From IMG/VR virus record IMGVR_UViG_3300036799_000060: 64,000 bases of DNA. The stretch is one strand, 5' to 3'. This document shows positions 15,467 through 59,747 of this stretch, piece by piece. Source of the stretch: a virus. Both the position numbers and the translations under genes were made by a program. Numbering within the stretch: the first letter of the stretch is position 1; each line of letters opens with the position of its first letter. Below the pieces are notes generated by a model. The model searched no databases, was not told the origin of the DNA, and saw nothing but the letters and a program-made list of their open reading frames with translations.

Positions 15467-18307
15467 GTGCACGGGATCGCGTGGGATGAGGCTGAGCGGG
15501 CGTTCTGGAACCCGCGCCTGCATCCCCGCGACCCCGGGGGCAAGTGGGCGGCCAAGGCTGGCGAGCTGGACGCGCTGGCCAACGAGGTGCAGCACGAGCA
15601 CTTTGTGAACGCGTTCCTGGGCGGCACGGCCAAGGTGGACGATGCGGGCGCGCTGGCCCCGGCGGCAGCCCATCTGCACGATGCGGCGGACGCGTTGCGC
15701 AAGGGTGACACGCACGGCGCGGAGGCCAACCTGGCCGAGGCGGAGCGGCACGCGGCGGCGATGCCCGGCAAGCGGATGAAGGGCCATCACCACAAGATCA
15801 AGGGCCACCACCACCACCTGCGCAAGTACAACGGGGGCAGCTCGTTCGGTGAGTCCCTGGCGGGGGAGCTGGCCGGTGCCCTTGCGGCACGGGCGTTCAA
15901 CCCGCGCCAGCCGCGTGACCCGCACACCGGCAAGTGGGTTGCGGTGGCGGGGCACCTGGACAAGCTGGCGTCTGAGATCGGGCATCACCCGAGCGCGGTA
16001 GCAGCGAGGCGGGCTGCGTCGGCGCTGCGGCACGGCGACCGTGAGGGCGCGATCCGGCATCTGGCGTCGGCGCACCGGCAGGCGGCCACGATGCGCGGCG
16101 GCGAGCGTCACGTGGTGGCGATTGACCGGCACCTGGCTGGGCTGATGGAGCCGCAGCCGATGACCCCGGAGGAGCTGGCCAGCCTGGCTGGGCATATCCC
16201 GCCGGGGATGGAGGCGCCTGCCACTCATGTGGGGCTGGCGATGCTCGGGCTTGAAGGCGGACCGGGGGACCTGGCCGCGATGCTGGCGGCTGAGCCTAAG
16301 CCGCCACGGGTGTGGACCGGTGGCGTTGCCCGGTTCTCGCGGTGGGGGCTGGCGGAGCGGCTGGCCGACCTGGCGGACGCCGACCCAAAAGGTGAGGCCG
16401 TCCGGGCGGCGGCTGGCGGGCACCACATCCCGGGGACGCCGTACCACTACCGGCACGGGTGGATTCCGGTTGCCCCGTACTTCAAGCAGCCGGGTGATCT
16501 TCAGCCGGGTGATGTGGTGGAGTTCCGGGGCCACAAGCACATGGTGCTTCAGGCGCCTGGCCAGGCTGGGCGGGTGAACCTGCCGCCGGACAAGGGCAGC
16601 GGCGTGTATCTGCGGCCGATCGCTGGCAGCAGCATCTTCCCCGAGTCCGGGGTGAAGCATTACGCCACGGCCAGGGTGCATCAGCACAAGATGATCGGCC
16701 CGGGGATCGTCGGTGTGCAGACGGTGACGGGCAAGGGCGAGGTGCTGGGCGGCGCGGCCAAGGTCGACCTGTTCTCGTCAGCGTTCGCGCAGCACCAGCG
16801 CGCGGCCGACGATCTGGCGGCGAGCCTGCCCGGTGTGATCGGCCCGGGGGAGACGCGCCCGCTGAACGGTGCGCAGATCTATGACCGGTTCCCGCCACGG
16901 CCGGGTGAGAGCGCGGGGGCGTACCGGCGGCGGATCTATGGCATGTCGATGCCGCACAACCTGGTGTCCACCACCACGGCCCGCCCGGGGCATGGGAACC
17001 ACGCCATCGGCGGCGGGACGATCCCGAGCCTGGCGACGCCGGGGAAGCCGCCGCACATAACGAATGTGAAGCCGGACCGGCAGCTTCAGCCGCTCATGAC
17101 CCCGGCCGACCCGGCGATGAACGGGCCGCAGCCGAAGGACATGGACGAGGCGGTGACGCAGATCGCGTTCGGGTTGATCCGCAACGCGCAAGGCCCGCTA
17201 GGCGACTACCCGAACGCGGCCGAGATGCTGAGGTTCTGGCCGCCGCACGTGTCCGAGTCCCCGGTGGATTACCGCAACCGGCTCGCGGCGATGACGCCGA
17301 AGGATTTCAAGGACGGCGCGGAGGTGGCGCGCGGCCGCGCCCGGGTCGGCGCGGGCGGCCTCGGTGCGCAGTTCGCGGCTGGGCCTGAGCCGGATCACCG
17401 CCCGGAGTGGGCCAAGGCCGCTGGGCTGGTGTGGAACAGCCAGTTCGGCTGGGTGGTGGAGTCGGATAACGCCAGGCTGCTGGCCGGGGACTCCCTGCCG
17501 CCGGGCTCGGCGCCGCACGTCCAGGTGCCCTCGTCTGCGCTTGCGCCTGAGGGCGAGTCGCGGGTGCAGGTGCTCGGGAAAGGTGTCACCCCTGAAGAGG
17601 TGTCCCTGATTCACTCGATTGAATCGGGGGTCAGGAGCACCGATGAGGAGGGTGTCGGCGGGGCGCAGTCCGAGGCGGAGTTCCTGACGCTGAACGACGG
17701 CGAGCGGGTGATGCACAAGTCCTACCTGTCCTGGGATCAGGGCGGGGACTTCTCCCCAGCGGACCTGGCGGACGCCGAGTACCTGTCTGGGCAGGTGGCG
17801 GATGTGATCGGCGGCACCGGGGCGCCTGCGGTGGTGCGCGGTGATACGCCGGATGACATCTACATGCAGTTCAAGGACATGGAGATAGCCGCTAACTGGC
17901 TGTCGGACCGGGGTATCGACTACGGCGACCCGTTCAGTTCGTCGCCTGACACGTTCATGAATCCGCAGTCGTACCGGATCGGCCTGCTGGACTACCTGAC
18001 GCAGAACAGCGACCGGCACTACCACAACTACGGGTTCGATGCCGACGGCAACCCGGTGCCGATCGACCACTCGTCCACGTTCGGCATCCAGGGCGGCGGC
18101 TGGGATTCGCCGTTCCTTCAGGCGGCCGATACGGCGCTGGAGCATCACCGCAGCGACGCCATCTCGGTGGCTGAGCTGGACGAGATCGGCAAGCGGCTGG
18201 AGCACGTGAAGGGCCAGTTCACTGACGCGGGCCGGGGCGACTGGTACAACGGCGTGCTGTCGCGGCTGGCCGAGTTCCGGCGGGCGACCGAGACGGGGCA
18301 GTTCTGA
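15467..18307 (+). CDS. large head-module protein (946 aa) with C-terminal PI3/4-kinase-like (atypical protein kinase fold) domain
   Basis: GTG 15467 lies 10 nt after the portal stop. Two NPR.(H)PRDP..GKW motifs and a His-rich KGHHHKIKGHHHH run. The C-terminus has VMHKS, DAEYLSG, LDYLTQNSDRHYHNYG (DRHxxN catalytic loop, 18011-18028) and PIDHSSTFG (DxG-like). Confidence 0.6.
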   Translation: MHGIAWDEAERAFWNPRLHPRDPGGKWAAKAGELDALANEVQHEHFVNAFLGGTAKVDDAGALAPAAAHLHDAADALRKGDTHGAEANLAEAERHAAAMPGKRMKGHHHKIKGHHHHLRKYNGGSSFGESLAGELAGALAARAFNPRQPRDPHTGKWVAVAGHLDKLASEIGHHPSAVAARRAASALRHGDREGAIRHLASAHRQAATMRGGERHVVAIDRHLAGLMEPQPMTPEELASLAGHIPPGMEAPATHVGLAMLGLEGGPGDLAAMLAAEPKPPRVWTGGVARFSRWGLAERLADLADADPKGEAVRAAAGGHHIPGTPYHYRHGWIPVAPYFKQPGDLQPGDVVEFRGHKHMVLQAPGQAGRVNLPPDKGSGVYLRPIAGSSIFPESGVKHYATARVHQHKMIGPGIVGVQTVTGKGEVLGGAAKVDLFSSAFAQHQRAADDLAASLPGVIGPGETRPLNGAQIYDRFPPRPGESAGAYRRRIYGMSMPHNLVSTTTARPGHGNHAIGGGTIPSLATPGKPPHITNVKPDRQLQPLMTPADPAMNGPQPKDMDEAVTQIAFGLIRNAQGPLGDYPNAAEMLRFWPPHVSESPVDYRNRLAAMTPKDFKDGAEVARGRARVGAGGLGAQFAAGPEPDHRPEWAKAAGLVWNSQFGWVVESDNARLLAGDSLPPGSAPHVQVPSSALAPEGESRVQVLGKGVTPEEVSLIHSIESGVRSTDEEGVGGAQSEAEFLTLNDGERVMHKSYLSWDQGGDFSPADLADAEYLSGQVADVIGGTGAPAVVRGDTPDDIYMQFKDMEIAANWLSDRGIDYGDPFSSSPDTFMNPQSYRIGLLDYLTQNSDRHYHNYGFDADGNPVPIDHSSTFGIQGGGWDSPFLQAADTALEHHRSDAISVAELDEIGKRLEHVKGQFTDAGRGDWYNGVLSRLAEFRRATETGQF

Positions 18308-53474: not shown

Positions 53475-53550
53475 TGGAGGCGCTGGCGGGACTCGAACCC
53501 GCGACTTACAGCTTTGCAGGCTGCACCATTGGCCGCTCTGGCACAGCGCC
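53475..53550 (-). tRNA. tRNA-Cys(GCA)
   Basis: The reverse complement folds as a 76-nt cloverleaf. Acceptor GGCGCTG/CAGCGCC, anticodon loop CT-GCA-AA, T-arm GCGGG-TTCGAGT-CCCGC, CCA encoded. Confidence 0.9.
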
Positions 53551-53651
53551 GTGGTGGACCCCCCGGGCTTCCAACCCAACCCGGGAGCACGGGGCTCGCG
53601 CGGGGAGTCCGTGGACCGATACCGCTGCGCAAGCGGCCGGTGCTCCAACCG

Positions 53652-53725
53652 TGGGCGCGGCCGGATTCGAACCGGCACCGCGTGGCTTAGGAGGCCACGG
53701 CTCTGTCCAGTTGAGCTACGCGCTC
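53652..53725 (-). tRNA. tRNA-Arg(CCT)
   Basis: D-arm GCTC/GAGC, anticodon stem GTGGC/GCCAC, loop CT-CCT-AA, T-arm GCCGG-TTCGAAT-CCGGC. The acceptor has one A2xC71 mismatch. Confidence 0.85.
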
Positions 53726-53726
53726 G

Positions 53727-53800
53727 TGCGGCTGGCGGGACTCGAACCCGCAACCCCCAGCTTCGGAAGCTGGCGCTCTGTCCTGTTGGGCTACAGCCAC
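53727..53800 (-). tRNA. tRNA-Arg(CCG)
   Basis: Acceptor GTGGCTG/CAGCCGC, stem CCAGC/GCTGG, loop TT-CCG-AA, T-arm GCGGG-TTCGAGT-CCCGC. Confidence 0.85.
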
Positions 53801-53801
53801 G

Positions 53802-53882
53802 TGCCAGGTGAGGGAATCGAACCCCCGGCGCCCGTAGGCGACTGCTTTACAGGCAGCGAAGCGGCCATCGCTAACCCCTGGC
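53802..53882 (-). tRNA. tRNA-Tyr(GTA), type II
   Basis: 81 nt. Loop CT-GTA-AA, long variable arm CGCC-TAC-GGCG, T-arm GGGGG-TTCGATT-CCCTC. Confidence 0.85.
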
Positions 53883-53883
53883 T

Positions 53884-53960
53884 TGGGGAGGGTGACGGGA
53901 CTCGAACCCGCAAGGGGCTGGCTCACAACCAGGTGCCCGATCCGTCTGGCTTCACCCACC
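53884..53960 (-). tRNA. tRNA-His(GTG)
   Basis: Extra 5' G(-1) opposite C73, loop TT-GTG-AG, T-arm GCGGG-TTCGAGT-CCCGT, CCA encoded. Confidence 0.85.
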
Positions 53961-53961
53961 G

Positions 53962-54034
53962 TGGGCGGTGCTGGACTCGAACCAGCGGCCTGCCGGGTGT
54001 GGACCGGCTGCTCTCCCAACTGAGCTAATCGCCC
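53962..54034 (-). tRNA. tRNA-Val(CAC), C at position 33
   Basis: Acceptor GGGCGAT/ACCGCCC, D-arm GCTC/GAGC, stem GCCGG/CCGGC, loop TC-CAC-AC, T-arm GCTGG-TTCGAGT-CCAGC. Confidence 0.8.
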
Positions 54035-54094
54035 GTGCGGTGAGGGGGGCCGGGTGCTCGCAAGCATGGACCGGGGTTAACTTCCCTCACCTCG

Positions 54095-54167
54095 TACGCC
54101 CGGAGGGATTCGAACCCCCATCTGACTGATTCGTAGTCAGCCGCTCTGTCCATTGAGCTACAGACGC
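54095..54167 (-). tRNA. tRNA-Arg(ACG)
   Basis: D-arm GCTC/GAGC, stem GCTGA/TCAGT, loop CT-ACG-AA, T-arm GGGGG-TTCGAAT-CCCTC. The acceptor has three G-U pairs. Confidence 0.8.
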
Positions 54168-54288
54168 TCGGTCGGTCCAGCGGCAGCCCGGCACTCGATT
54201 ACGGTCACTGTGCCGGTGCCCGGGGAAGCGTTAACCGCCTGTGCCGCCTGCCGGGCGAGGGAGCCTAGGACCACTCCCGCTGAACCGG

Positions 54289-54360
54289 TGGGTGACGCAG
54301 GGATCGAACCTGCGGCCTCCGCCTTGTCGGGGCGGTGCTCTCCCGCTGAGCTAGACACCC
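54289..54360 (-). tRNA. tRNA-Val(GAC), C at position 33
   Basis: D-arm GCTC/GAGC, stem CCGCC/GGCGG, loop CC-GAC-AA, T-arm GCAGG-TTCGATC-CCTGC. Confidence 0.8.
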
Positions 54361-54392
54361 GGGGGAGGGCTGAAGGCACGCCTTCGCCCTCG

Positions 54393-54466
54393 CGGGACCG
54401 ACGGGACTCGAACCCGCCCTACCGGGTTGACAACCCGGCGTGCTGACCGCGTGACACTACGGCCCC
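54393..54466 (-). tRNA. tRNA-Asp(GTC)
   Basis: Acceptor GGGGCCG/CGGTCCC, stem CCGGG/CCCGG, loop TT-GTC-AA, T-arm GCGGG-TTCGAGT-CCCGT. Confidence 0.85.
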
Positions 54467-54476
54467 ATGTTGTGCG

Positions 54477-54549
54477 CTCCTGCGGCAGGATTCGAACCTG
54501 CACCTCTCGCCTTAACAGGACGCTGCCCTACCAGTTGGGCTACGCAGGA
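54477..54549 (-). tRNA. tRNA-Asn(GTT)
   Basis: Acceptor TCCTGCG/CGCAGGA, D-arm GCCC/GGGC, loop CT-GTT-AA, T-arm GCAGG-TTCGAAT-CCTGC. Confidence 0.85.
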
Positions 54550-54580
54550 AAGACCGGTGGCCATCAGTACCCTTCAAGCC

Positions 54581-54964
54581 ATGCCCCACAAAGATCCTGA
54601 GGCGCGGCGGGCCTACCACCGTGACTACATGCGCAAGCGGCACGCGGAAGATGCCGAGGCCCGCAAGCTCCAGCTTGCGCGGGTGAAGCGGAACAACGAT
54701 CGGTACGCGGCGGCTAAGCGGGCCTGGTATGACGCCTACCTTGCCGAGCATCCCTGTGTGGACTGCGGCGAGGCCGACCCCGAGGTGCTGGACTTCGACC
54801 ACATCCCCGGGCGTGGCCCCAAACTGGCCAACGTGTCGGTGCTACTCCAGCAGCACTACTCGCTTCGCCGCCTCATAGCCGAGGTGGCGCTATGCGAGGT
54901 GCGCTGCGCGAACTGCCATCGCCGCATCACCCGGCGGCGCGAGCGCGAGGCGCTGGCCGCCTAG
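54581..54964 (+). CDS. HNH endonuclease (127 aa), antisense to the tRNA array
   Basis: ATG 54581. HPCVDCGEADPEVLDFDHIPGRGPKLANVS...CEVRCANCHRRIT is a clear HNH/zinc-finger core. Its stop at 54962-54964 abuts the tRNA at 54965. Confidence 0.8.
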   Translation: MPHKDPEARRAYHRDYMRKRHAEDAEARKLQLARVKRNNDRYAAAKRAWYDAYLAEHPCVDCGEADPEVLDFDHIPGRGPKLANVSVLLQQHYSLRRLIAEVALCEVRCANCHRRITRRREREALAA

Positions 54965-55042
54965 TTGCGGAGGTGGGATTCGAACCCACGATAGGCGCTG
55001 CTTATGAGACAGCCGAGGACGACCGAACTCCTCTACTCCGCA
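54965..55042 (-). tRNA. tRNA-Met(CAT) (elongator-like; Ile2 not excluded)
   Basis: Acceptor TGCGGAG/CTCCGCA, stem GCTGT/GCAGC, loop CT-CAT-AA, T-arm GTGGG-TTCGAAT-CCCAC. Unusually long D-loop (11 nt) and variable loop (7 nt). Confidence 0.75.
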
Positions 55043-55043
55043 G

Positions 55044-55121
55044 TGCCGTCGGCGGGAATCGAACCCGCGTCGTTTCCGAGTTGAAAGCCCGGCTGCCCCT
55101 GGCCATCAGAGCAACGACGGC
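55044..55121 (-). tRNA. tRNA-Glu(TTC)
   Basis: Acceptor GCCGTCG/CGACGGC, stem CCGGG/CTCGG, loop CT-TTC-AA, T-arm GCGGG-TTCGATT-CCCGC. 78 nt with a 7-nt variable loop. Confidence 0.75.
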
Positions 55122-55122
55122 G

Positions 55123-55194
55123 TGACCCCGGTGGGATTCGAACCCACACCGACCAGGCTGAGAACCTGGCATCCTTCCCGTAGACGACGGGGCC
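55123..55194 (-). tRNA. tRNA-Glu(CTC)
   Basis: Acceptor GGCCCCG/CGGGGTC, Glu-type short D-stem GTC...GAT, stem CCAGG/CCTGG, loop TT-CTC-AG, T-arm GTGGG-TTCGAAT-CCCAC. Confidence 0.8.
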
Positions 55195-55282
55195 TTGTGC
55201 GGCTCGGCCAGGCTGGCGTGCGGGGCCTTGCGGCACCGGGCAGTCTGCTGCCTGAGAGGCCAGTAAGTTCTGGCCGAGCCAG

Positions 55283-55356
55283 TGCATCGCCCCGGACTCG
55301 AACCGGGAACCCCGCCGGGTAGAAACCGGCCGCGCTGTCCGTTGCGCCAGCGATGC
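55283..55356 (-). tRNA. tRNA-Arg(TCT)
   Basis: Acceptor GCATCGC/GCGATGC, D-arm GCGC/GCGC, stem GCCGG/CCGGC, loop TT-TCT-AC, T-arm CCCGG-TTCGAGT-CCGGG. Confidence 0.85.
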
Positions 55357-55357
55357 G

Positions 55358-55430
55358 TGCCGTGCCAAGGACTCGAACCCTGCCACTCCGGGGTAAAAGC
55401 CCGGTGCCCAGCCAGCTAGGCGTACACGGC
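55358..55430 (-). tRNA. tRNA-Lys(TTT)
   Basis: Acceptor GCCGTGT/GCACGGC, stem CCGGG/CCCGG, loop CT-TTT-AC, T-arm CAGGG-TTCGAGT-CCTTG. Confidence 0.85.
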
Positions 55431-55431
55431 G

Positions 55432-55505
55432 TAGGCCAGTAGGGATTTGAACCCTCATCACCTGTTCATAAGGCAGGCGCACTAACCATGTTGTGCTACT
55501 GGCCG
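55432..55505 (-). tRNA. tRNA with anticodon TAT (Ile-AUA type), atypical and AT-rich
   Basis: D-arm GCAC/GTGC, T-loop TTCAAAT. The anticodon arm is CCTGC-CTTATGA-ACAGG with a C31xA39 mismatch and G37. Alternatively it folds as a 5-bp stem GCCTG/CAGGT with a 9-nt loop. The acceptor register is ambiguous (C1xT72, or shifted by 1 nt). Confidence 0.55.
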
Positions 55506-55506
55506 G

Positions 55507-55580
55507 TGGGCACCCTAGGGGTTGAACCTAGCTGCTACCGCCTTATCAGAGCGGCCTCGTCACCGGCTGAGTCGGTGCCC
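55507..55580 (-). tRNA. tRNA-Ile(GAT)
   Basis: Acceptor GGGCACC/GGTGCCC, stem CCGCT/GGCGG, loop CT-GAT-AA, T-arm CTAGG-TTCAACC-CCTAG. Confidence 0.85.
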
Positions 55581-55951
55581 TTGGCTCGCCAGCGGCGCAT
55601 ATAGCTGGCTTGCCATGCCCGGCGAAACGCCTTGCACTGTTCGCACGGGCACCGCCACCGGCCCACGCCGGATGGACACAGGGTGGCAGCGTAGTTCTCC
55701 TGGCTGGTCTTGTCCTGGTGGCAACCGGCTCCCCCGCAGAGAAGCTGGCACTTGTCAACCTCGGCCAGGAACCGGGGCAAGGCCCAGTTCGTGATCTCGG
55801 AGATGTTGGCCACCTTGGTGGCCGGATCGACGTGGTCGAAGTGGAGCCCGTCAGTGGTCCCACAGCCAGCGCAGTGCCCGCCAAGGCGGGCTCGGGCCAT
55901 CTCTAGCCGCTCGGCCCGGCGGCGGCGCTGGTATTCCGCGAAGTCGCGCAC
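55535..55951 (-). CDS. HNH endonuclease (138 aa)
   Basis: Listed ORF starting at GTG. HCAGCGTTDGLHFDHVDPATKVANIS...CQLLCGGAGCHQDKT. Its last approximately 15 codons overlap the 5' half of tRNA-Ile(GAT). Confidence 0.75.
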   Translation of the reverse strand: MRDFAEYQRRRRAERLEMARARLGGHCAGCGTTDGLHFDHVDPATKVANISEITNWALPRFLAEVDKCQLLCGGAGCHQDKTSQENYAATLCPSGVGRWRCPCEQCKAFRRAWQASYMRRWRAKGTDSAGDEAALIRR

Positions 55952-55984
55952 CTGGCCAGGTTATCAGGGTGCGCCTTCACTGGG

Positions 55985-56079
55985 AGGATGGGGCGGGATT
56001 CGAACCCGCACGGGGACTCCCGCCCCCTAACTGTTTTCGGGACAGCAGCCGGTAGGCCCAACCGTCGGCTTACCCATCC
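55985..56079 (-). tRNA. tRNA-Ser(CGA), type II, C at position 33
   Basis: Acceptor GGATGGG/CCCATCC, stem GCTGT/ACAGT, loop CC-CGA-AA, long variable arm GGGG-GCGGGAGT-CCCC, T-arm GCGGG-TTCGAAT-CCCGC. Oversized D-loop (about 16 nt), 95 nt in total. Confidence 0.7.
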
Positions 56080-56083
56080 ATCG

Positions 56084-56172
56084 CGGAAGGCGAGCGAATC
56101 GAACGCCCGCAGGACTCGCGCCCTGACCTCCGGTTAGCAACCGGGTGCCTTACCAGCCTCGGCCAGCCTTCC
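56084..56172 (-). tRNA. tRNA-Ser(GCT), type II
   Basis: Acceptor GGAAGGC/GCCTTCC, loop TT-GCT-AA, long variable arm, T-arm GGGCG-TTCGATT-CGCTC. 89 nt. Confidence 0.8.
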
Positions 56173-56182
56173 ATCGTGATGA

Positions 56183-56566
56183 TCACATCCGTGCCCGCCG
56201 CGCCCGCGCTCGGTTCCGGTTCCACGCCCGGCAGAGATCGCAATGGCACCTGTGGACGCAGTACATAGCTCGCGTGCCATGCCGGTACCCGGTGGCCTTG
56301 CTGGCGTTCTCGGCCAGCAGTTCGGTCTTGGTCTCGTGGCAGTAGTGGCATAGAACCTGGCACTTCGCCAGTTCTGCCTCGCGTCGCGCTTGCGCCCAAC
56401 TCCAGATCCGGTGACTGGCCTTGGCCAGTGCATTTTTGTGATCTAGCTCCAGGTCGTCCGTATCGCCACACCAGGCGCAGCGCTTGCCAGTGAACCATTC
56501 AGCGCGGCGCCGGGCCGCCCACTCCCGCTGGTACCTAGCCTGCTGGGCAGGATCGGCATAGGGCAT
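56183..56566 (-). CDS. HNH endonuclease (127 aa)
   Basis: Listed ORF. CAWCGDTDDLELDHKNALAKAS...CQVLCHYCHETKT. Confidence 0.75.
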   Translation of the reverse strand: MPYADPAQQARYQREWAARRRAEWFTGKRCAWCGDTDDLELDHKNALAKASHRIWSWAQARREAELAKCQVLCHYCHETKTELLAENASKATGYRHGTRAMYCVHRCHCDLCRAWNRNRARARRARM

Positions 56567-56592
56567 GTGTCCAGTCTAGCGGGCTGAACCTT

Positions 56593-56669
56593 TGGTAGCG
56601 CTCCGGGGACTCGAACCCCGAACACCCCGGGTCTGAGCCGGGTGGCTCTGCCAATTGGCCTAGAGCGCC
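56593..56669 (-). tRNA. tRNA with Leu anticodon CAG but class I (short variable loop) structure
   Basis: Acceptor GGCGCTC/GAGCGCT, D region TAGGCCAATTGGCAGAGCC, stem CCCGG/CCGGG, loop CT-CAG-AC, 5-nt variable GTGTT, T-arm CGGGG-TTCGAGT-CCCCG, A73, CCA encoded. Confidence 0.75.
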
Positions 56670-56670
56670 T

Positions 56671-56746
56671 TGGAGCGGCCGACGGGGATCGAACCCGCAT
56701 CCTCCACCTTGGCAAGGTGGTGCGCAGCCAGTTGCGCCACAACCGC
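56671..56746 (-). tRNA. tRNA-Gly(GCC)
   Basis: Acceptor GCGGTTG/CGGCCGC, D-arm GCGC/GCGC, stem CCACC/GGTGG, loop TT-GCC-AA, T-arm GCGGG-TTCGATC-CCCGT, CCA encoded. Confidence 0.85.
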
Positions 56747-56747
56747 A

Positions 56748-56819
56748 TGGAGCCCAACCCCGGTGCCGACCCGGGCGTCCCGTCCGTACCAGGGACGGGT
56801 GCGCGCTGGCGCGCTGGGC
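56748..56819 (-). tRNA. tRNA-Thr(GGT), miniaturised non-canonical form
   Basis: Acceptor GCCCAGC/GTTGGGC, D-hairpin GCGC-CAGC-GCGC (4-nt loop), loop CT-GGT-AC, T-arm CCCGG-GTCGGCA-CCGGG, T73, CCA encoded. Confidence 0.65.
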
Positions 56820-56823
56820 ATCG

Positions 56824-56895
56824 CTCCAGGGGCAGGGCTCGAACCTGCGTGATCCCGGTTCAAAGCCGGGGGTGGTAGCCGTCAACCACCCTGGA
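56824..56895 (-). tRNA. tRNA-Gln(TTG)
   Basis: Acceptor TCCAGGG/CCCTGGA (U1-A72), stem CCCGG/CCGGG, loop CT-TTG-AA, T-arm GCAGG-TTCGAGC-CCTGC. Confidence 0.85.
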
Positions 56896-56966
56896 TGGAG
56901 CCGCCTCCCGGTGCCGACCCGGGCCGCGCTGCTTACAGGGCAGCGGCCACGGCCGCGTGCGGCGGC
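56896..56966 (-). tRNA. tRNA-Thr(TGT), miniaturised non-canonical form, C33
   Basis: Acceptor GCCGCCG/AGGCGGC, D-hairpin CACG-CGGC-CGTG, stem GCTGC/GCAGC, loop CC-TGT-AA, T-arm CCCGG-GTCGGCA-CCGGG, T73, CCA encoded. Confidence 0.65.
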
Positions 56967-56970
56967 AAAG

Positions 56971-57044
56971 TGCCCCGGGCGGGAATCGAACCCGCAACAC
57001 CCGGCATCTCGGGCCGATGGCTCTGCCAGTTGGCCTACCAGGGC
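56971..57044 (-). tRNA. tRNA with Leu anticodon GAG, class I structure, C33
   Basis: Acceptor GCCCTGG/CCGGGGC, D region TAGGCCAACTGGCAGAGCC (paralogous to the CAG tRNA), stem TCGGC/GCCGG, loop CC-GAG-AT, variable GTGTT, T-arm GCGGG-TTCGATT-CCCGC, A73. Confidence 0.75.
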
Positions 57045-57115
57045 TGGAGCCGCCACCCGGTGCCGACCCGGGTCTCCCGCCTTACGGGGGCGGGGCCGCA
57101 GCCGTGCGCGGCGGC
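57045..57115 (-). tRNA. tRNA-Thr(CGT), miniaturised non-canonical form, C33
   Basis: Acceptor GCCGCCG/TGGCGGC, D-hairpin CGCA-CGGC-TGCG, stem CCGCC/GGCGG, loop CC-CGT-AA, T-arm CCCGG-GTCGGCA-CCGGG, T73, CCA encoded. Confidence 0.65.
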
Positions 57116-57119
57116 GAAG

Positions 57120-57193
57120 CTACCGGGGCTGGACTCGAACCAGCGGCGGCCAGGGTTCAGAGCCCTGGTTGGGATGCCAGCACCCACCCGGTA
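57120..57193 (-). tRNA. tRNA-Gln(CTG)
   Basis: Acceptor TACCGGG/CCCGGTA (U1-A72), stem CAGGG/CCCTG, loop CT-CTG-AA, T-arm GCTGG-TTCGAGT-CCAGC. Confidence 0.85.
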
Positions 57194-57198
57194 TCGCG

Positions 57199-57272
57199 TA
57201 GGCGGCGCGGGATTCGAACCCACAAGCACCAGGGTTTGAGCCTGGTCGCTCATCCGTTTGGCGTAGCCGCCC
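57199..57272 (-). tRNA. tRNA with Leu anticodon CAA, class I structure
   Basis: Acceptor GGGCGGC/GCCGCCT, stem CCAGG/CCTGG, loop CT-CAA-AC, 5-nt variable TGCTT, T-arm GTGGG-TTCGAAT-CCCGC, A73. Confidence 0.75.
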
Positions 57273-57276
57273 CTAG

Positions 57277-57350
57277 TACGCCCCGTGGGAGTCGAACCCA
57301 CACCCCGATCATTAAGAGTGACCTGCTCTGTCCAGTTAAGCTACGGGCGC
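57277..57350 (-). tRNA. tRNA-Lys(CTT)
   Basis: D-arm GCTT/GAGC, stem GGTCA/TGATC, loop CT-CTT-AA, T-arm GTGGG-TTCGACT-CCCAC. The acceptor has a G7xG66 mismatch. Confidence 0.8.
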
Positions 57351-57770
57351 TAGTCGATGGCTGCCGAACGTCCGCGCCGTACGACGGCGGTGATCGTTGG
57401 CGCAGACCACCTCACACTTGGCCATTTCCGCCACGATGGCGGCGAGGCCGTTCTTGCTGATCATGTCGCTGATGTTCGCCACCTTGTCGCCCTGGTGATC
57501 GAACTCCAGGACCACGATGTCCGTCTCCCCACAGTCCACGCACGGGTGCGTCCGCAGGTAGTCAGCGACTAGCCGTTGCGCCGCGCGCCTGTTCCGTTCC
57601 CGGCTGGTGGCCCTGGCCGCAGCGTGCCGCGTCCTTGTGGTGAGGTAGTACGCCGCGTTGTACGCGCTTTTGCACTCGCTGCACATGCTGTTGCGGCCAT
57701 CGGTGCGGGCGCGGTTCACCGGGAAGCCTGCCAGCGGCTTGTCCCGCTGGCACTTGTAGCAATGCTTCAC
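57336..57770 (-). CDS. HNH endonuclease (144 aa), paralog of 54581-54964
   Basis: GTG 57770 (VKHCYKCQRDKPL...). HPCVDCGETDIVVLEFDHQGDKVANIS...CEVVCANDHRRRT. Its 3' end overlaps the 5' end of tRNA-Lys(CTT) by about 15 nt. Confidence 0.75.
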   Translation of the reverse strand: MKHCYKCQRDKPLAGFPVNRARTDGRNSMCSECKSAYNAAYYLTTRTRHAAARATSRERNRRAAQRLVADYLRTHPCVDCGETDIVVLEFDHQGDKVANISDMISKNGLAAIVAEMAKCEVVCANDHRRRTARTFGSHRLAPVA

Positions 57771-57801
57771 GGCGTCAGAGCCTACGGCTAAGAGCCGACA
57801 G

Positions 57802-57877
57802 TGGAGCGGATGACAGGAATCGAACCTGCGTAGCCAGCTTGGAAGGCTGGAGCCTAATGCCATTCGGCCACATCCGC
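57802..57877 (-). tRNA. tRNA-Gly(TCC)
   Basis: Acceptor GCGGATG/CATCCGC, stem CCAGC/GCTGG, loop CT-TCC-AA, T-arm GCAGG-TTCGATT-CCTGT, CCA encoded. Confidence 0.85.
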
Positions 57878-57881
57878 ACAG

Positions 57882-57955
57882 TGACTCCCGCAGGGTTCGA
57901 ACCTGCCTACCTCCGGGGTTTCAGTCCGGCGCTCATCCACCTGAGCTAGAGAGCC
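57882..57955 (-). tRNA. tRNA-Phe(GAA)
   Basis: Acceptor GGCTCTC/GGGAGTC, D-arm GCTC..., loop CT-GAA-AC (A31xC39 mismatch), T-arm GCAGG-TTCGAAC-CCTGC. Confidence 0.8.
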
Positions 57956-57959
57956 ATAG

Positions 57960-58034
57960 TCGGGGCGGCGGGATTCGAACCCGCGATTACCTGCTCCCAA
58001 GGCAGGTGGCCTAGCCAAACTGGCCCACGCCCCA
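57960..58034 (-). tRNA. tRNA-Pro(TGG)
   Basis: Acceptor TGGGGCG/CGCCCCG, D-arm GGCC/GGCC, stem CCTGC/GCAGG, loop CT-TGG-GA, T-arm GCGGG-TTCGAAT-CCCGC. Confidence 0.85.
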
Positions 58035-58059
58035 TCACCGGGCCAGCTAGGCCCGTTCG

Positions 58060-58133
58060 TCTGGATGGCAGGATTCGAACCTGCGCCCTCGTGCACCCGA
58101 AGCACGCGCGCTACCAAGCTGCGCCACACCCAG
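58060..58133 (-). tRNA. tRNA-Pro(CGG)
   Basis: Acceptor CTGGGTG/CATCCAG (C1-G72), D-arm GCGC/GCGC, stem CGTGC/GCACG, loop TT-CGG-GT, T-arm GCAGG-TTCGAAT-CCTGC. Confidence 0.85.
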
Positions 58134-58138
58134 TCCAG

Positions 58139-58211
58139 TGGAGATGGTGGGACTCGAACCCACGGCCTCCCGGTTGCGGGCCGGGTGCCCTACCAATTGG
58201 GCCACATCCCC
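58139..58211 (-). tRNA. tRNA-Ala(CGC), C33
   Basis: Acceptor GGGGATG/CATCTCC with G3-U70, D-arm GCCC/GGGC, stem CCCGG/CCGGG, loop CC-CGC-AA, T-arm GTGGG-TTCGAGT-CCCAC. Confidence 0.8.
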
Positions 58212-58296
58212 AGGTAATTCGGCGCTGCGGGCACCGGTCGGCACACCCGCCGATCCTGGCGGACCTCGCCTTCCGGGGGATCAACCCGCAGCCCCG

Positions 58297-58368
58297 TGGA
58301 GCCGGTGAGATTCGAACTCACGACCGTCTGCCTGCCGGGCAGGTGCACTACCGCTGTGCTACGGCCCC
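58297..58368 (-). tRNA. tRNA-Ala(GGC), C33
   Basis: Acceptor GGGGCCG/CGGCTCC with G3-U70, D-arm GCAC/GTGC, stem (C)CTGC/GCAG(A), loop CC-GGC-AG, T-arm GTGAG-TTCGAAT-CTCAC. Confidence 0.8.
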
Positions 58369-58374
58369 TTGATA

Positions 58375-58406
58375 GGTGGCGGTTATCTCCGACGCTTCCC
58401 GCCACC
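58375..58406. other. hairpin inside the tRNA array
   Basis: 8-bp perfect stem GGTGGCGG / CCGCCACC with a 16-nt loop, in the 185-bp gap between tRNA-Trp and tRNA-Ala(GGC). Confidence 0.4.
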
Positions 58407-58490
58407 AGCCAGGCGCCTCTCGGCCGTGTGTAGCCGGGCGAAGACCTGGTGCCAGGCGGATGGCGCCGCCCGGCAAAGGTGAACACGCTG

Positions 58491-58502
58491 TTGAGTTCTC
58501 AA
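58491..58502. promoter_or_regulatory. palindrome TTGAG-TT-CTCAA in an A/T-richer island (candidate operator or internal promoter element)
   Basis: Read directly from the sequence. On the minus strand the context is CCTTGAGAACTCAACAGCG, and a similar CTTGAGA occurs at 8421-8427 upstream of gene 8432. Confidence 0.25.
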
Positions 58503-58553
58503 GGTGCGAGCCGGTTGCCTGCCGTTCCCTCCCGGGTCGGGCTGGTGGCTGCG

Positions 58554-58626
58554 CAGGGGCCGCAGGATTTGAACCCGCATCTGTCGGTTTTGGAGACCGG
58601 CGCTCTAGCCGTTGAGCTAGACCCCC
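58554..58626 (-). tRNA. tRNA-Trp(CCA)
   Basis: Acceptor GGGGGTC/GGCCCCT, D-arm GCTC/GAGC, loop CT-CCA-AA, T-arm GCGGG-TTCAAAT-CCTGC, G73. Confidence 0.8.
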
Positions 58627-58646
58627 ATGTTGTCCTGGTAAAGCTA

Positions 58647-58681
58647 GAAGCCGCCTCCCGGGGCTCCCGGGTGGCGGCTTC
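58647..58681. terminator. hairpin upstream (in the transcription sense) of tRNA-Trp
   Basis: 9-bp perfect stem GAAGCCGCC / GGCGGCTTC enclosing a CCCGGG-rich 17-nt loop. On the minus strand it is followed by TAGCTTTACC. Confidence 0.45.
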
Positions 58682-59021
58682 AGGTTGGGCCTGACGGTCC
58701 TCTACCCTGTTGCCGCCCCGGTGGGCTGCCCGATCGTGTCATAGCCGGACAGCAGCGAGCATGCAGTATGATTCGCTGCTTCTCGCCTGGTGGTCCGACT
58801 GCGTGTCACGGTGCTTGCCCTTCACCTCGTTCGGTGATCTCCTAAAGTACCTGCCCGTACACCGATGTGTCAAACGGGTTTTACGGCGGGAATGTTCCGG
58901 GCGGCTGGACGGCGCCGCCCCGGCCACCCAGAGGTGCAGCCGGGGGCGGGCCGCTGGCTCACATTAACCCGGGCGGCAGCGGCCGTCCAGGACCGGGATG
59001 CGTCCCCCGCCGGGAGACACC

Positions 59022-59100
59022 AGAACGGCCGCTGCGCCTCCCGGACACTGTACCCCCAGTCCTACATGGGTGTACCGCCAGGATGGCGCAGCGGCCGTTC
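59022..59100. repeat. 17-bp perfect inverted repeat AGAACGGCCGCTGCGCC / GGCGCAGCGGCCGTTCT separated by 45 nt
   Basis: Read directly. Lies in an approximately 420-bp region (58700-59121) with no convincing ORF. A third copy of CAGCGGCCGT lies at 58977-58986. Confidence 0.7.
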
Positions 59101-59121
59101 TGAGGCCCTTCACGGGTGGCG

Positions 59122-59388
59122 TCAGCCGCCTGCGCCTCCGCCGGTCGGGCCGGGCTGGTAGCCGCCGAACGCGGGCGCCTTCGCGGCGCCGTTGCCGGTG
59201 TCCGTCCACTGTTCCAGTGCCGTGATCGCCTCACCGAGCCCGGCGGCCTTGGCCTTCTCCTCGGTGGCCTTCGCCGGGTGGCTGTCCGCTAGCGACTTGG
59301 CCGCCCCGGTGTGCCCGCTGCGGAGCGACTTGAGGTAGCCGATCAGCGCGGCCCTGTCGCCCGAGATCGTCACCTGAACTTTGCTCAT
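59122..59388 (-). CDS. small hypothetical protein (88 aa), paralog of 59435-59653
   Basis: ATG 59388 (MSKVQVTISGDRAALIGYLKSLRSGH...ITALEQWTDTGNGA...). GC3 bias. Confidence 0.5.
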   Translation of the reverse strand: MSKVQVTISGDRAALIGYLKSLRSGHTGAAKSLADSHPAKATEEKAKAAGLGEAITALEQWTDTGNGAAKAPAFGGYQPGPTGGGAGG

Positions 59389-59434
59389 GCCGTTCACCTC
59401 CTTCCCGAGCTTCCGTCGCCGTCCACCGGGCCAG

Positions 59435-59653
59435 CTAGGCCGGTGGCTTGGCGCCGTCGCCCGTGTTCTCCCACGAGCGCAGGATCGCCAGCGACTCCTC
59501 CAGGCCCTCCGCCTGGTAGGTGTGCCGGTCCCGGTCCGACTTGCGCCGGGCGTCCGTCGCGGCCTCGTTGTGCGCGTCGCGCAAGCCCTCCAGGTACTCC
59601 ACGAGCCCCGCCTGGCTGCCCACTATGCGCACCGTCACTGCTGCTGATGCCAT
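59435..59653 (-). CDS. small hypothetical protein (72 aa), paralog of 59122-59388
   Basis: ATG 59653 (MASAAVTVRIVGSQAGLVEYLEGLRDAH...LAILRSWENTGDGA...). Same architecture as its neighbour. Confidence 0.5.
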   Translation of the reverse strand: MASAAVTVRIVGSQAGLVEYLEGLRDAHNEAATDARRKSDRDRHTYQAEGLEESLAILRSWENTGDGAKPPA

Positions 59654-59674
59654 GTCCAATCACCTCCCCTCCAG

Positions 59675-59747
59675 TGCCCCCGCCGGGAATCGAACCCGGG
59701 CCACCACGCCCCTAACGGCGGGTACCTCTCCATTGGGCTACGGGGGC
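59675..59747 (-). tRNA. tRNA with Leu-type anticodon TAG, class I, irregular anticodon arm
   Basis: Perfect acceptor GCCCCCG/CGGGGGC, T-arm CCCGG-TTCGATT-CCCGG, A73, short variable loop. The anticodon arm folds only as a 4-bp stem CGCC/GGCG with the 6-nt loop G-T-TAG-G. The D-stem is weak. Confidence 0.6.

Follow-up and report, generated by a model that had tools for sequence, protein, structure and literature searches.

Leucine-anticodon tRNA genes without a long variable arm in the tRNA array of a putative actinobacteriophage

The stretch of viral DNA studied here (IMG/VR record IMGVR_UViG_3300036799_000060; 64,000 nucleotides (nt), hereafter the window) carries 34 tRNA genes called by ARAGORN, every one on the minus strand, between positions 53475 and 59747 (6.3 kb), with four HNH endonuclease genes interspersed among them (PHROGs). 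A preliminary description of this DNA had noted that all four of its leucine-anticodon tRNAs lack the long variable arm of class II tRNAs. By ARAGORN, Rfam and a positional parse of the cloverleaf, this holds for the genes with anticodons CAG, GAG and CAA, which are of the short-arm form (type I); the fourth gene is armless too, but is not a regular UAG tRNA. The four genes are listed below, followed by three class II genes of the same array that served as controls.

56593..56669, minus strand: type I tRNA-Leu(CAG), found by ARAGORN and Rfam (50.7 bits); 77 nt with encoded CCA; G1.U72, A73, variable loop GUGUU
56970..57044, minus strand: type I tRNA-Leu(GAG), found by ARAGORN and Rfam (48.6 bits); A73, variable loop GUGUU, C33 not U33
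57198..57272, minus strand: type I tRNA-Leu(CAA), found by ARAGORN and Rfam (45.3 bits); G1.U72, A73, variable loop UGCUU
59674..59747, minus strand: aberrant type I Leu-family member, 'tRNA-???' in ARAGORN, Rfam 41.9 bits
55983..56079, minus strand: class II tRNA-Ser(GCT), control (ARAGORN, parse), 27-nt variable arm
56083..56172, minus strand: class II tRNA-Ser(GCT), control (ARAGORN, parse), 20-nt variable arm
53801..53882, minus strand: class II tRNA-Tyr(GTA), control (ARAGORN, parse), 14-nt variable arm

The gathering score of the Rfam tRNA model is 29 bits. Each of the three regular Leu genes measures 74 nt up to position 73. In the parse a 7-base-pair (bp) acceptor stem is followed by U8 and A9, and the D region of 17 nt contains a stem of 3 bp; the anticodon stem has 5 bp and closes a loop of 7 nt, the variable loop has 5 nt, the T arm is normal and position 73 is A. 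A class II tRNA has a variable region of at least 10 nt that forms a stem-loop; here Rfam, ARAGORN and the parse all give variable loops of 5 nt. The loops had been described as 4-6 nt long, which stands for GTGTT, GTGTT and TGCTT; that of the fourth gene, first given as about GTGG, is the 5-nt GUGGC. The combination of a Leu anticodon with a 5-nt variable loop (GUGUU, GUGUU and UGCUU) is that of the type I tRNA known from Streptomyces coelicolor, whose LeuRS (leucyl-tRNA synthetase) accepts no variable loop shorter than this (PMC6614811). Single-sequence minimum free energy folding of the Leu genes gives no cloverleaf, and their structure was taken from the other methods. The Ser and Tyr genes keep arms of 14-27 nt, as had been reported, so the array is not generally truncated.

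The proposed kinship of the CAG and GAG genes is borne out by a common D arm, GGCCAA(T/C)TGGCAGAGCC, and all three Leu genes form a mutual best direct-repeat family within the array (D3). Their D loops are AAUUGGCAGA, AACUGGCAGA and AAACGGAUGA, and their T loops UUCGAGU, UUCGAUU and UUCGAAU. Leucine identity in Escherichia coli requires A73, A15-U48 and G18G19 and can do without the variable arm and the anticodon; serine identity depends on the long arm (PMC9976931). Among the marks read by LeuRS, A73 is present in the fourth gene as well as in the regular three, as first noted. The CAG, GAG and CAA genes also have U8:A14 and A15-U48 (T8, A14 and A15 are present and the variable loop ends in T), G18G19, and U54, U55, C56 and A58. 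Their 3-bp D stem closes the loop AAYUGGCAGA, one base off E. coli tRNA-Leu. The parse found no foreign identity mark in these three genes: no G3.U70 and no long arm.

Relatives were collected with the 19-nt query TAGGCCAAYTGGCAGAGCC, which covers positions 8-9 and the D arm and is common to the window CAG and GAG genes. IMG/VR holds five exact matches, four of which are 74-77-nt tRNAs with anticodon TAA or CAA, and GTDB (one genome per species) holds 42 loci, nearly all in Actinomycetota. Twenty-five of these 42 are a lone, almost invariant 74-nt tRNA-Leu(CAA) in Actinomycetota metagenome-assembled genomes (MAGs), flanked across genomes by an ANTAR response regulator and a Liv-type (branched-chain amino acid) ABC transporter (loci L014-L049, e.g. 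L030 6881-6956). Such conserved flanks indicate a core chromosomal gene, and the 19-nt stretch, identical in the 25 lone syntenic genes, ties the window CAG and GAG genes to it by sequence. One lone copy, from Micromonosporaceae, has the variable loop ACAGU, near the ACAGC of S. coelicolor. A further 15 loci lie in dense arrays (8-32 tRNAs per 8 kb), where ARAGORN assigned a Leu anticodon (CAG, GAG or TAA) to 13 and made other calls for two. Several of the dense-array genes have the acceptor stem of the window Leu(CAG) entire, alongside changes in their anticodon and T stems that compensate each other. The D arm of the window CAG and GAG genes thus almost always goes with a Leu anticodon. Several of the array tRNA-Leu(CAG) copies in L011, L031, L038 and L050 have the anticodon loop CCCAGAC (C33), and the L022 array copy has a broken anticodon stem and is miscalled Ser by ARAGORN.

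With anticodons masked, each window Leu gene is nearest, among 425 tRNAs, to Leu tRNAs of several anticodons; for Leu(CAA), 12 of the 15 nearest neighbours are Leu tRNAs. The features that set 63 distinct type I Leu tRNAs apart from 298 other class I tRNAs of the same loci are as follows.

A73: 92% of type I Leu, 52% of other class I
U48: 90% of type I Leu, 36% of other class I
A14-A15: 86% of type I Leu, 34% of other class I
13:22 unpaired (mostly C.A): 97% of type I Leu, 20% of other class I
G1.U72: 44% of type I Leu, 10% of other class I

The search patterns fixed part of the D arm and so bias these figures; a recount on the 34 sequences that match neither pattern gave A73 in 85%, U48 in 82%, A14A15 in 74%, 13:22 unpaired in 94% and G1.U72 in 35%. 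This signature is the published leucine identity set of E. coli, namely A73, A14, A15-U48 and G18G19 (PMC9976931, PMC6614811). Over the 63 relatives pairing reaches 96-99% in the acceptor, anticodon and T stems and 89% in the D stem (52-67% in shuffles), and all four stems covary, with up to six pair types per position. Gene order around the Leu genes is kept in at least eight independent arrays. One type of tRNA body carries five different Leu anticodons and none other.

Two explanations had been put forward for the short arms: that the phage supplies streamlined Leu tRNAs, or that the tRNAs are charged with another amino acid and recode CUN and UUG. Codon use bears on the choice. When the terminase, the portal protein and a 166-amino-acid protein were aligned with homologues at most 60% identical, CTG (n=80) faced L in 48%, V in 10% and I in 9%, followed by A, F and M, and the column consensus was L at 51 of the 80 positions; CTC (n=9) faced L in 37%, V in 13% and I in 12%. 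Conservation at CTG and CTC was comparable to that at ATC, GTG, GCC and TTC codons. The 80 CTG and 9 CTC codons therefore lie at Leu-type, then Val/Ile/Met-type positions, and no other synthetase's mark was seen, which speaks against recoding. In 6,172 codons, the leucine codons number 378 CTG, 81 CTC, 24 CTT, 19 TTG, 6 CTA and no TTA. These counts fit the Leu tRNA set of the array, which includes none for UUA.

We read these genes as leucine tRNAs on the basis of their structure, conservation, covariation and identity marks, of the exclusively Leu anticodons and of the Leu-like use of CTG and CTC. We put the probability at about 80% that the CAG, GAG and CAA genes are ordinary leucine tRNAs of the known actinobacterial type I architecture, encoded by a phage. 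Of the two original explanations it is the streamlined Leu tRNA that is supported, by the retained LeuRS features, the 5-nt variable loop and a covarying family restricted to Leu anticodons. The type I architecture occurs as a single tRNA-Leu(CAA) in the chromosomes of many Actinomycetota, and with all Leu anticodons in the dense arrays, interrupted by homing endonucleases, of actinobacteriophages and in transferred clusters. The short form appears to be widespread in Actinomycetota and their phages.

Bacterial LeuRS ignores both the anticodon and the long arm and reads A73 and the tertiary core (U8:A14, A15-U48 and the G18G19-U55C56 elbow), all kept in the three genes. In the mechanism proposed here, the host LeuRS would charge the short-arm tRNAs with leucine, and the charged tRNAs would read CUG, CUC/CUU and UUG as leucine, which takes in every Leu codon used in quantity by the phage. 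Leu would be the only class II isotype able to drop its arm. Bacterial tyrosyl-tRNA synthetase (TyrRS) also binds the long variable arm, and the arm is the main identity element for seryl-tRNA synthetase (SerRS), which would be why the Ser and Tyr tRNAs retain theirs. As to origin, a host-type type I tRNA-Leu may have been captured and then duplicated with changes of anticodon, which would be free of cost because the synthetase is blind to the anticodon.

Several points weigh against this interpretation. The window is a metagenome contig, and the charging of its Leu tRNAs by a host LeuRS is something we infer, as are the expression of the genes and their origin. Charging also depends on the enzyme, since E. 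coli LeuRS and one Streptomyces LeuRS fail on the S. coelicolor type I tRNA (PMC6614811), and the window genes were compared with that tRNA by its published description. C33, as in Leu(GAG), is unusual for an elongator tRNA, and a scan for promoters and terminators around the genes turned up nothing useful. Finally, TTG (n=2) and CTA (n=1) were too few for the codon test, and many of the homologues used in it come from unknown phages that possibly carry the same tRNAs. Val/Ile/Met substitutions use unaffected codons, which limits this circularity; it is reduced, not removed.

The fourth gene departs from the others in several respects. In the Rfam alignment its anticodon loop has 8 nt, CGUUAGGG, and contains UAG; there is a C.U mismatch in the anticodon stem, 10:25 is G.U, and the D loop is one base shorter than in the nearest relatives. 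It has A73 and a 5-nt variable loop, GUGGC, in which position 48 is C, so that the A15-U48 pair is missing, and its acceptor stem starts with G1-C72 and C2-G71. Its first 18 nt are identical in type I Leu(TAG/TAA/CAA) genes of phage P318 and of three IMG/VR contigs, and this 18-nt start occurs only in type I tRNAs with Leu anticodons. The same fourth-gene sequence is found in three other, independent assemblies, L055-L057, so it is real DNA and not an assembly error; being near-identical strains, these add no divergence by which to judge the gene. The gene is not a regular tRNA-Leu(UAG); it may be a copy in decay, a reader of CUA or a decoder of four bases.

In addition, three spacers of 74-76 nt between the Leu, Gln and Gly genes are mutually homologous (repeat families D9/D11) and fold into a common cloverleaf with six compensated pairs (RNAalifold). 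They hold compact tRNAs of 71-72 nt, which ARAGORN and Rfam both missed.

57045..57115, minus strand: compact tRNA, anticodon CGU, 6-bp anticodon stem (repeat family D11, RNAalifold; covariance model R1 90.3 bits)
56896..56966, minus strand: compact tRNA, anticodon UGU, 6-bp anticodon stem (repeat family, RNAalifold; covariance model R1 83.8 bits)
56748..56819, minus strand: compact tRNA, anticodon GGU, 7-bp anticodon stem (repeat family, RNAalifold; covariance model R1 50.4 bits)

These RNAs have G1-C72, C2-G71, C3-G70, U73 and an encoded CCA at their ends. Their acceptor and D stems adjoin directly, the D stem has 4 bp and a loop of 4 nt, the anticodon stem has 6-7 bp and a loop of 7 nt, the variable loop has 3 nt, and the T loop is GUCGGCA. 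CGU, UGU and GGU are the three Thr anticodons that the array otherwise lacks (neither ARAGORN nor Rfam called a tRNA-Thr in it), and ACC and ACG together make up 58 per 1000 window codons. The covariance model R1, built on eight copies, retrieved 20 distinct members from the window, from six MAG arrays and from five IMG/VR contigs, all with U73 and a Thr anticodon (10 CGU, 7 UGU and 3 GGU). Their stems are 98-100% paired, with covariation, as counted by an anchored parse (MAFFT misaligned the 71-nt and 72-nt forms). An IMG/VR scan with the T-arm 15-mer CCGGGTCGGCACCGG was dropped in favour of the covariance model: about 10 of its 120 loci were real, and most of the matches were due to chance in GC-rich DNA. 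The gene order common to the arrays is Lys(CTT), Leu(CAA), Gln(CTG), Thr, Leu(GAG), Thr, Gln(TTG), Thr, Gly(GCC), Leu(CAG), and in some related arrays canonical tRNA-Thr genes occupy the compact-Thr slots. Threonine identity depends on acceptor stem and anticodon (PMC9976931), and both are kept in the compact tRNAs.

The nearest structural likeness is the pyrrolysine tRNA (tRNAPyl) of Methanomethylophilus alvus, in which, likewise, the anticodon stem has 6 bp, the variable loop 3 nt and the D loop 4 nt, the acceptor and D stems are joined without a linking nucleotide, and the G18G19 and T-Psi-C motifs are both absent (PMC7609411). It differs in having CUA and G73 where the compact tRNAs have CGU, UGU or GGU and U73, and no pylS or other pyl genes were seen with the latter. 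BLAST of the compact tRNAs against deposited phages gave no match, and we found no description of such compact Thr-anticodon tRNAs in the literature. We regard them as putative Thr tRNAs of tRNAPyl shape, and as more novel than the Leu result. If they are charged and used, a tRNAPyl-like body would serve a standard amino acid, and the tRNA complements of such phages would be under-counted by standard finders.

The window has a G+C content of about 69% and plus-strand genes for the large terminase subunit, the portal protein, a head protease and a tape-measure protein. Its terminase is only about 39% identical to Che9c-like mycobacteriophage terminases, a megablast search of deposited phages with the Leu region recovered nothing but a shared tRNA-Gly, and the neighbouring 166-amino-acid protein, used as an IMG/VR query, returned no close relatives; L055-L057, contigs that have a protein in common with the window, represent near-identical strains. 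The source is predicted to be an uncultured siphovirus-type actinobacteriophage without a close deposited relative. The main array and the HNH genes within it are the following.

53475..58626, minus strand: main tRNA array, 33 ARAGORN-called tRNA genes
54581..54964, plus strand: HNH endonuclease gene inside the array (PHROGs phrog_2255, E=2e-21)
55535..55951, minus strand: HNH endonuclease gene inside the array (PHROGs phrog_4234, E=1.5e-28)
56183..56566, minus strand: HNH endonuclease gene adjoining tRNA-Leu(CAG) (PHROGs phrog_4234, E=1e-39)
57336..57863, minus strand: HNH endonuclease open reading frame (ORF) inside the array (PHROGs phrog_2255, E=7e-30); its bounds overlap neighbouring tRNA genes and the true start is probably internal

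Tens of co-oriented tRNA genes with HNH interruptions place the array with the long arrays of phages and horizontally transferred elements, and its gene order is common to arrays in IMG/VR contigs and MAGs. HNH identity came from PHROGs; Pfam gave no match for the small ORFs of the array at E<0.001. Neither PHROGs nor Pfam matched a synthetase family, LeuRS included, among the long window ORFs tested (a few ORFs of 400-650 amino acids fell outside the scan).

The main array includes Ile(TAT), has GCT as the anticodon of both Ser genes, and several of its genes carry C33. This base stands in place of the near-universal U33 in five tRNAs, Leu-GAG (56970-57044), Val-CAC (53961-54034), Val-GAC (54287-54360), Ala-CGC (58138-58211) and Ala-GGC (58296-58368), and in about 21% of class I tRNAs over the collected arrays; it may be tied to the escape from anticodon nucleases that has been proposed for phage tRNAs (PMC10264068). 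The Val(CAC) gene differs from its counterpart in L055 (14309-14382) solely at anticodon-loop position 37, A in the window and T in L055. No tRNA for UCN was called in 53475-58626, though TCG and TCC make up 47 per 1000 codons; cluster C1 mycobacteriophages likewise avoid Ser(NGA) (PMC10264068). The rare tRNA-Ile(TAT) is present and ATA is nearly unused (2 codons).

Very stable minus-strand folds occupy the gaps 53551-53650, 54168-54286, 55195-55281 (11-bp closing stem, -46 kcal/mol), 58212-58295 and 58369-58552, which might harbour additional non-canonical tRNAs, for instance the Ser(UCN) that is missing, or elements involved in processing. The 495 nt at 58627-59121, between tRNA-Trp and two small genes, contain no convincing ORF and fold at -266 kcal/mol. 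Large non-coding RNAs such as GOLLD adjoin mycobacterial tRNA clusters (PMC6582537); in Rfam at a relaxed threshold, 58627-59121 matched no known family and is not GOLLD. A more distant phage contig of 103 kb, L060, has a four-base anticodon call, agga, with an enlarged loop at 15784-15856 and a 100-nt 'tRNA-Gln' with a long insertion at 16104-16203; both are also in L061.

A different reason for the short arm can also be proposed: on a tRNA still charged with leucine, it would have been selected to evade host tRNA-directed immunity or toxins that recognise the class II shape, within a wider remodelling of the array. Phage tRNAs are predicted to evade anticodon nucleases and to avoid Ser(NGA) (PMC10264068), and the same array holds three compact Thr tRNAs without D/T-loop elbow motifs, C33 in five tRNAs, a tRNA with an 8-nt loop, and Ser only as GCT. 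One report has Septu cutting tRNATyr's variable loop (PMC13096335), and another has MenT3 favouring tRNASer (PMC11541572). We consider such selection unlikely, however. Type I is the normal chromosomal form of tRNA-Leu(CAA) in many Actinomycetota and need not be an anti-defence trait, and the Ser and Tyr tRNAs retain their arms. Nor do we know of any defence system aimed at the arm of tRNA-Leu. As a broader and equally tentative proposal, the short-arm Leu tRNAs could be one part of an array-wide redesign of tRNA shape in which what the synthetases need is kept and surfaces that host tRNA-directed immunity might read are dropped or altered. Those surfaces may include the Leu long arm, the Thr elbow and linker, U33 in five tRNAs and the loop size of the UAG tRNA, and the compact Thr tRNAs may then be a new class of functional tRNA in a bacterial system. 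If true, the array would be a natural collection of 'shape-orthogonal' tRNAs.

That the short-arm genes are pseudogenes in decay, or tRNA-like decoys that stay uncharged, is considerably less probable. The CAG homologue of Bxz1 is annotated 'tRNA pseudogene' in RefSeq, the fourth window gene has several defects, and the promoter and terminator scan came up empty. In the three regular genes, however, the 96-99% pairing of the acceptor, anticodon and T stems, with many compensating changes, the conserved identity nucleotides and the order kept in at least eight independent arrays all point to function; Leu(CAG) moreover encodes its CCA, and the short-arm genes are the sole carriers of Leu anticodons in an otherwise near-complete array.

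Recoding, in which a synthetase other than LeuRS would charge the short-arm tRNAs and make CUN/UUG partly another amino acid during infection, draws on the missing isotype hallmark and on the fourth gene, which has G1-C72 and C2-G71 and whose 8-nt anticodon loop with UAG is an oddity shared by a tRNA of yeast mitochondria, the tRNAThr(UAG) through which CUN is reassigned to Thr (PMC7609411), but it is scarcely credible given that CTG and CTC face Leu/Val/Ile/Met positions of homologues, that every LeuRS mark is kept without G3.U70 or another foreign mark, that most other synthetases require their own anticodon, absent here (PMC9976931), that the same body occurs with five Leu anticodons and no others, that the S. 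coelicolor chromosomal tRNA of this architecture is a proven LeuRS substrate (PMC6614811), and that the fourth gene has a Leu-family body and lacks G35 and U36, the anticodon marks of threonyl-tRNA synthetase.

Read as ordinary leucine tRNAs, the three genes extend, by phage-borne CAG, GAG and CAA genes, a type whose function in Streptomyces has already been demonstrated, and they matter little alone; the compact Thr side result may matter more. They do yield a recognisable type I Leu signature (C13.A22, A15-U48, A73 and frequent G1.U72) and a simple rule, by which loss of the arm is possible only for a class II tRNA whose synthetase ignores the arm.

The closest known system shows that the premise of the preliminary description, that bacterial tRNA-Leu is always class II, does not hold. 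The chromosome of S. coelicolor encodes a single type I tRNA-Leu, tRNALeu(CAA), whose variable loop is ACAGC (Fan et al., 2019, NAR, PMC6614811). The sole LeuRS of this species charges it at about half the efficiency of type II tRNA-Leu, and needs the 5-nt variable loop and U8:A14 to do so (PMC6614811). The window genes share with it the Leu anticodon, the 5-nt variable loop, U8:A14, A73 and a source in Actinomycetota. S. coelicolor has the type I form only in its CAA isoacceptor, on the chromosome, whereas in the window CAG, GAG and CAA are phage-borne (TAG and TAA are found elsewhere); ACAGC has C48, in contrast to the U48 of GUGUU and UGCUU. The exact window D arm had no match in Streptomyces genomes in the GTDB scan.

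A short-variable-loop tRNALeu(TAG) was also mentioned by Behra et al. (2019) in a transferred tRNA cluster of Mycobacterium mucogenicum/phocaicum, where the core-genome copy has a long loop and for which the authors proposed a phage origin (PMC6582537). Like the array described here, that cluster is dense and includes the rare tRNA-Ile(TAT) together with a gene for an HNH endonuclease. The mention takes one sentence and concerns a single isoacceptor on a bacterial chromosome, whereas the window has three regular isoacceptors on a phage contig with terminase, portal and tape-measure genes.

Nor is the short form new to phages, as the preliminary description had implied: it is already in related phages and in host chromosomes. 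Type I Leu genes are present, uncommented, in many deposited actinophage genomes, and we found no paper discussing the absent arm in them. By ARAGORN, the tRNA-Leu genes of Bxz1 (CAG, GAG and CAA) measure 74-77 nt, those of prophi86-1 (TAG and CAA) 76 nt, the four of Microbacterium phage Zooman 74-81 nt, and the TAG gene of Thermobifida phage P318 74 nt. Compared with deposited phages by BLAST, the CAA and GAG genes matched annotated tRNA-Leu, ungapped through the variable region (for CAA, in prophi86-1, Zooman and Cece), and about 180 Bxz1-like records match with an annotated tRNA-Leu. The genes of Bxz1 and other cluster C mycobacteriophages, prophi86-1, Zooman and P318 resemble those of the window in their length (74-78 nt), Leu anticodons, A73 and, often, G1.U72, and in Bxz1 the trio is the same; they are only 70-78% identical to the window genes, and the phages are unrelated at the DNA level, with a terminase about 39% identical.

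The class II tRNA-Leu(CAG) of E. coli, whose reference sequence was verified against 5,426 genomes, shares A73, U8:A14, A15-U48, G18G19, the 3-bp D stem and the unpaired 13:22 with the window genes, and its D loop AAUUGGUAGA is one base apart from AAUUGGCAGA. It differs in its 15-nt variable stem-loop and in G13, against 5 nt and C13 in the window. Animal mitochondrial tRNA-Leu is likewise of type I shape and is marked for identity by A73 and A14 (PMC9976931), but it belongs to an organelle, is rich in A/U and weak in structure, and is served by a LeuRS of its own; the LeuRS of S. coelicolor fails to charge it (PMC6614811). Such mitochondrial tRNAs are the one exception admitted by the textbook rule, repeated in a 2023 review (PMC9976931), that tRNA-Leu everywhere else has a long arm. 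The genes described here correct that rule, and the type I Leu form is under-appreciated, yet not unknown.

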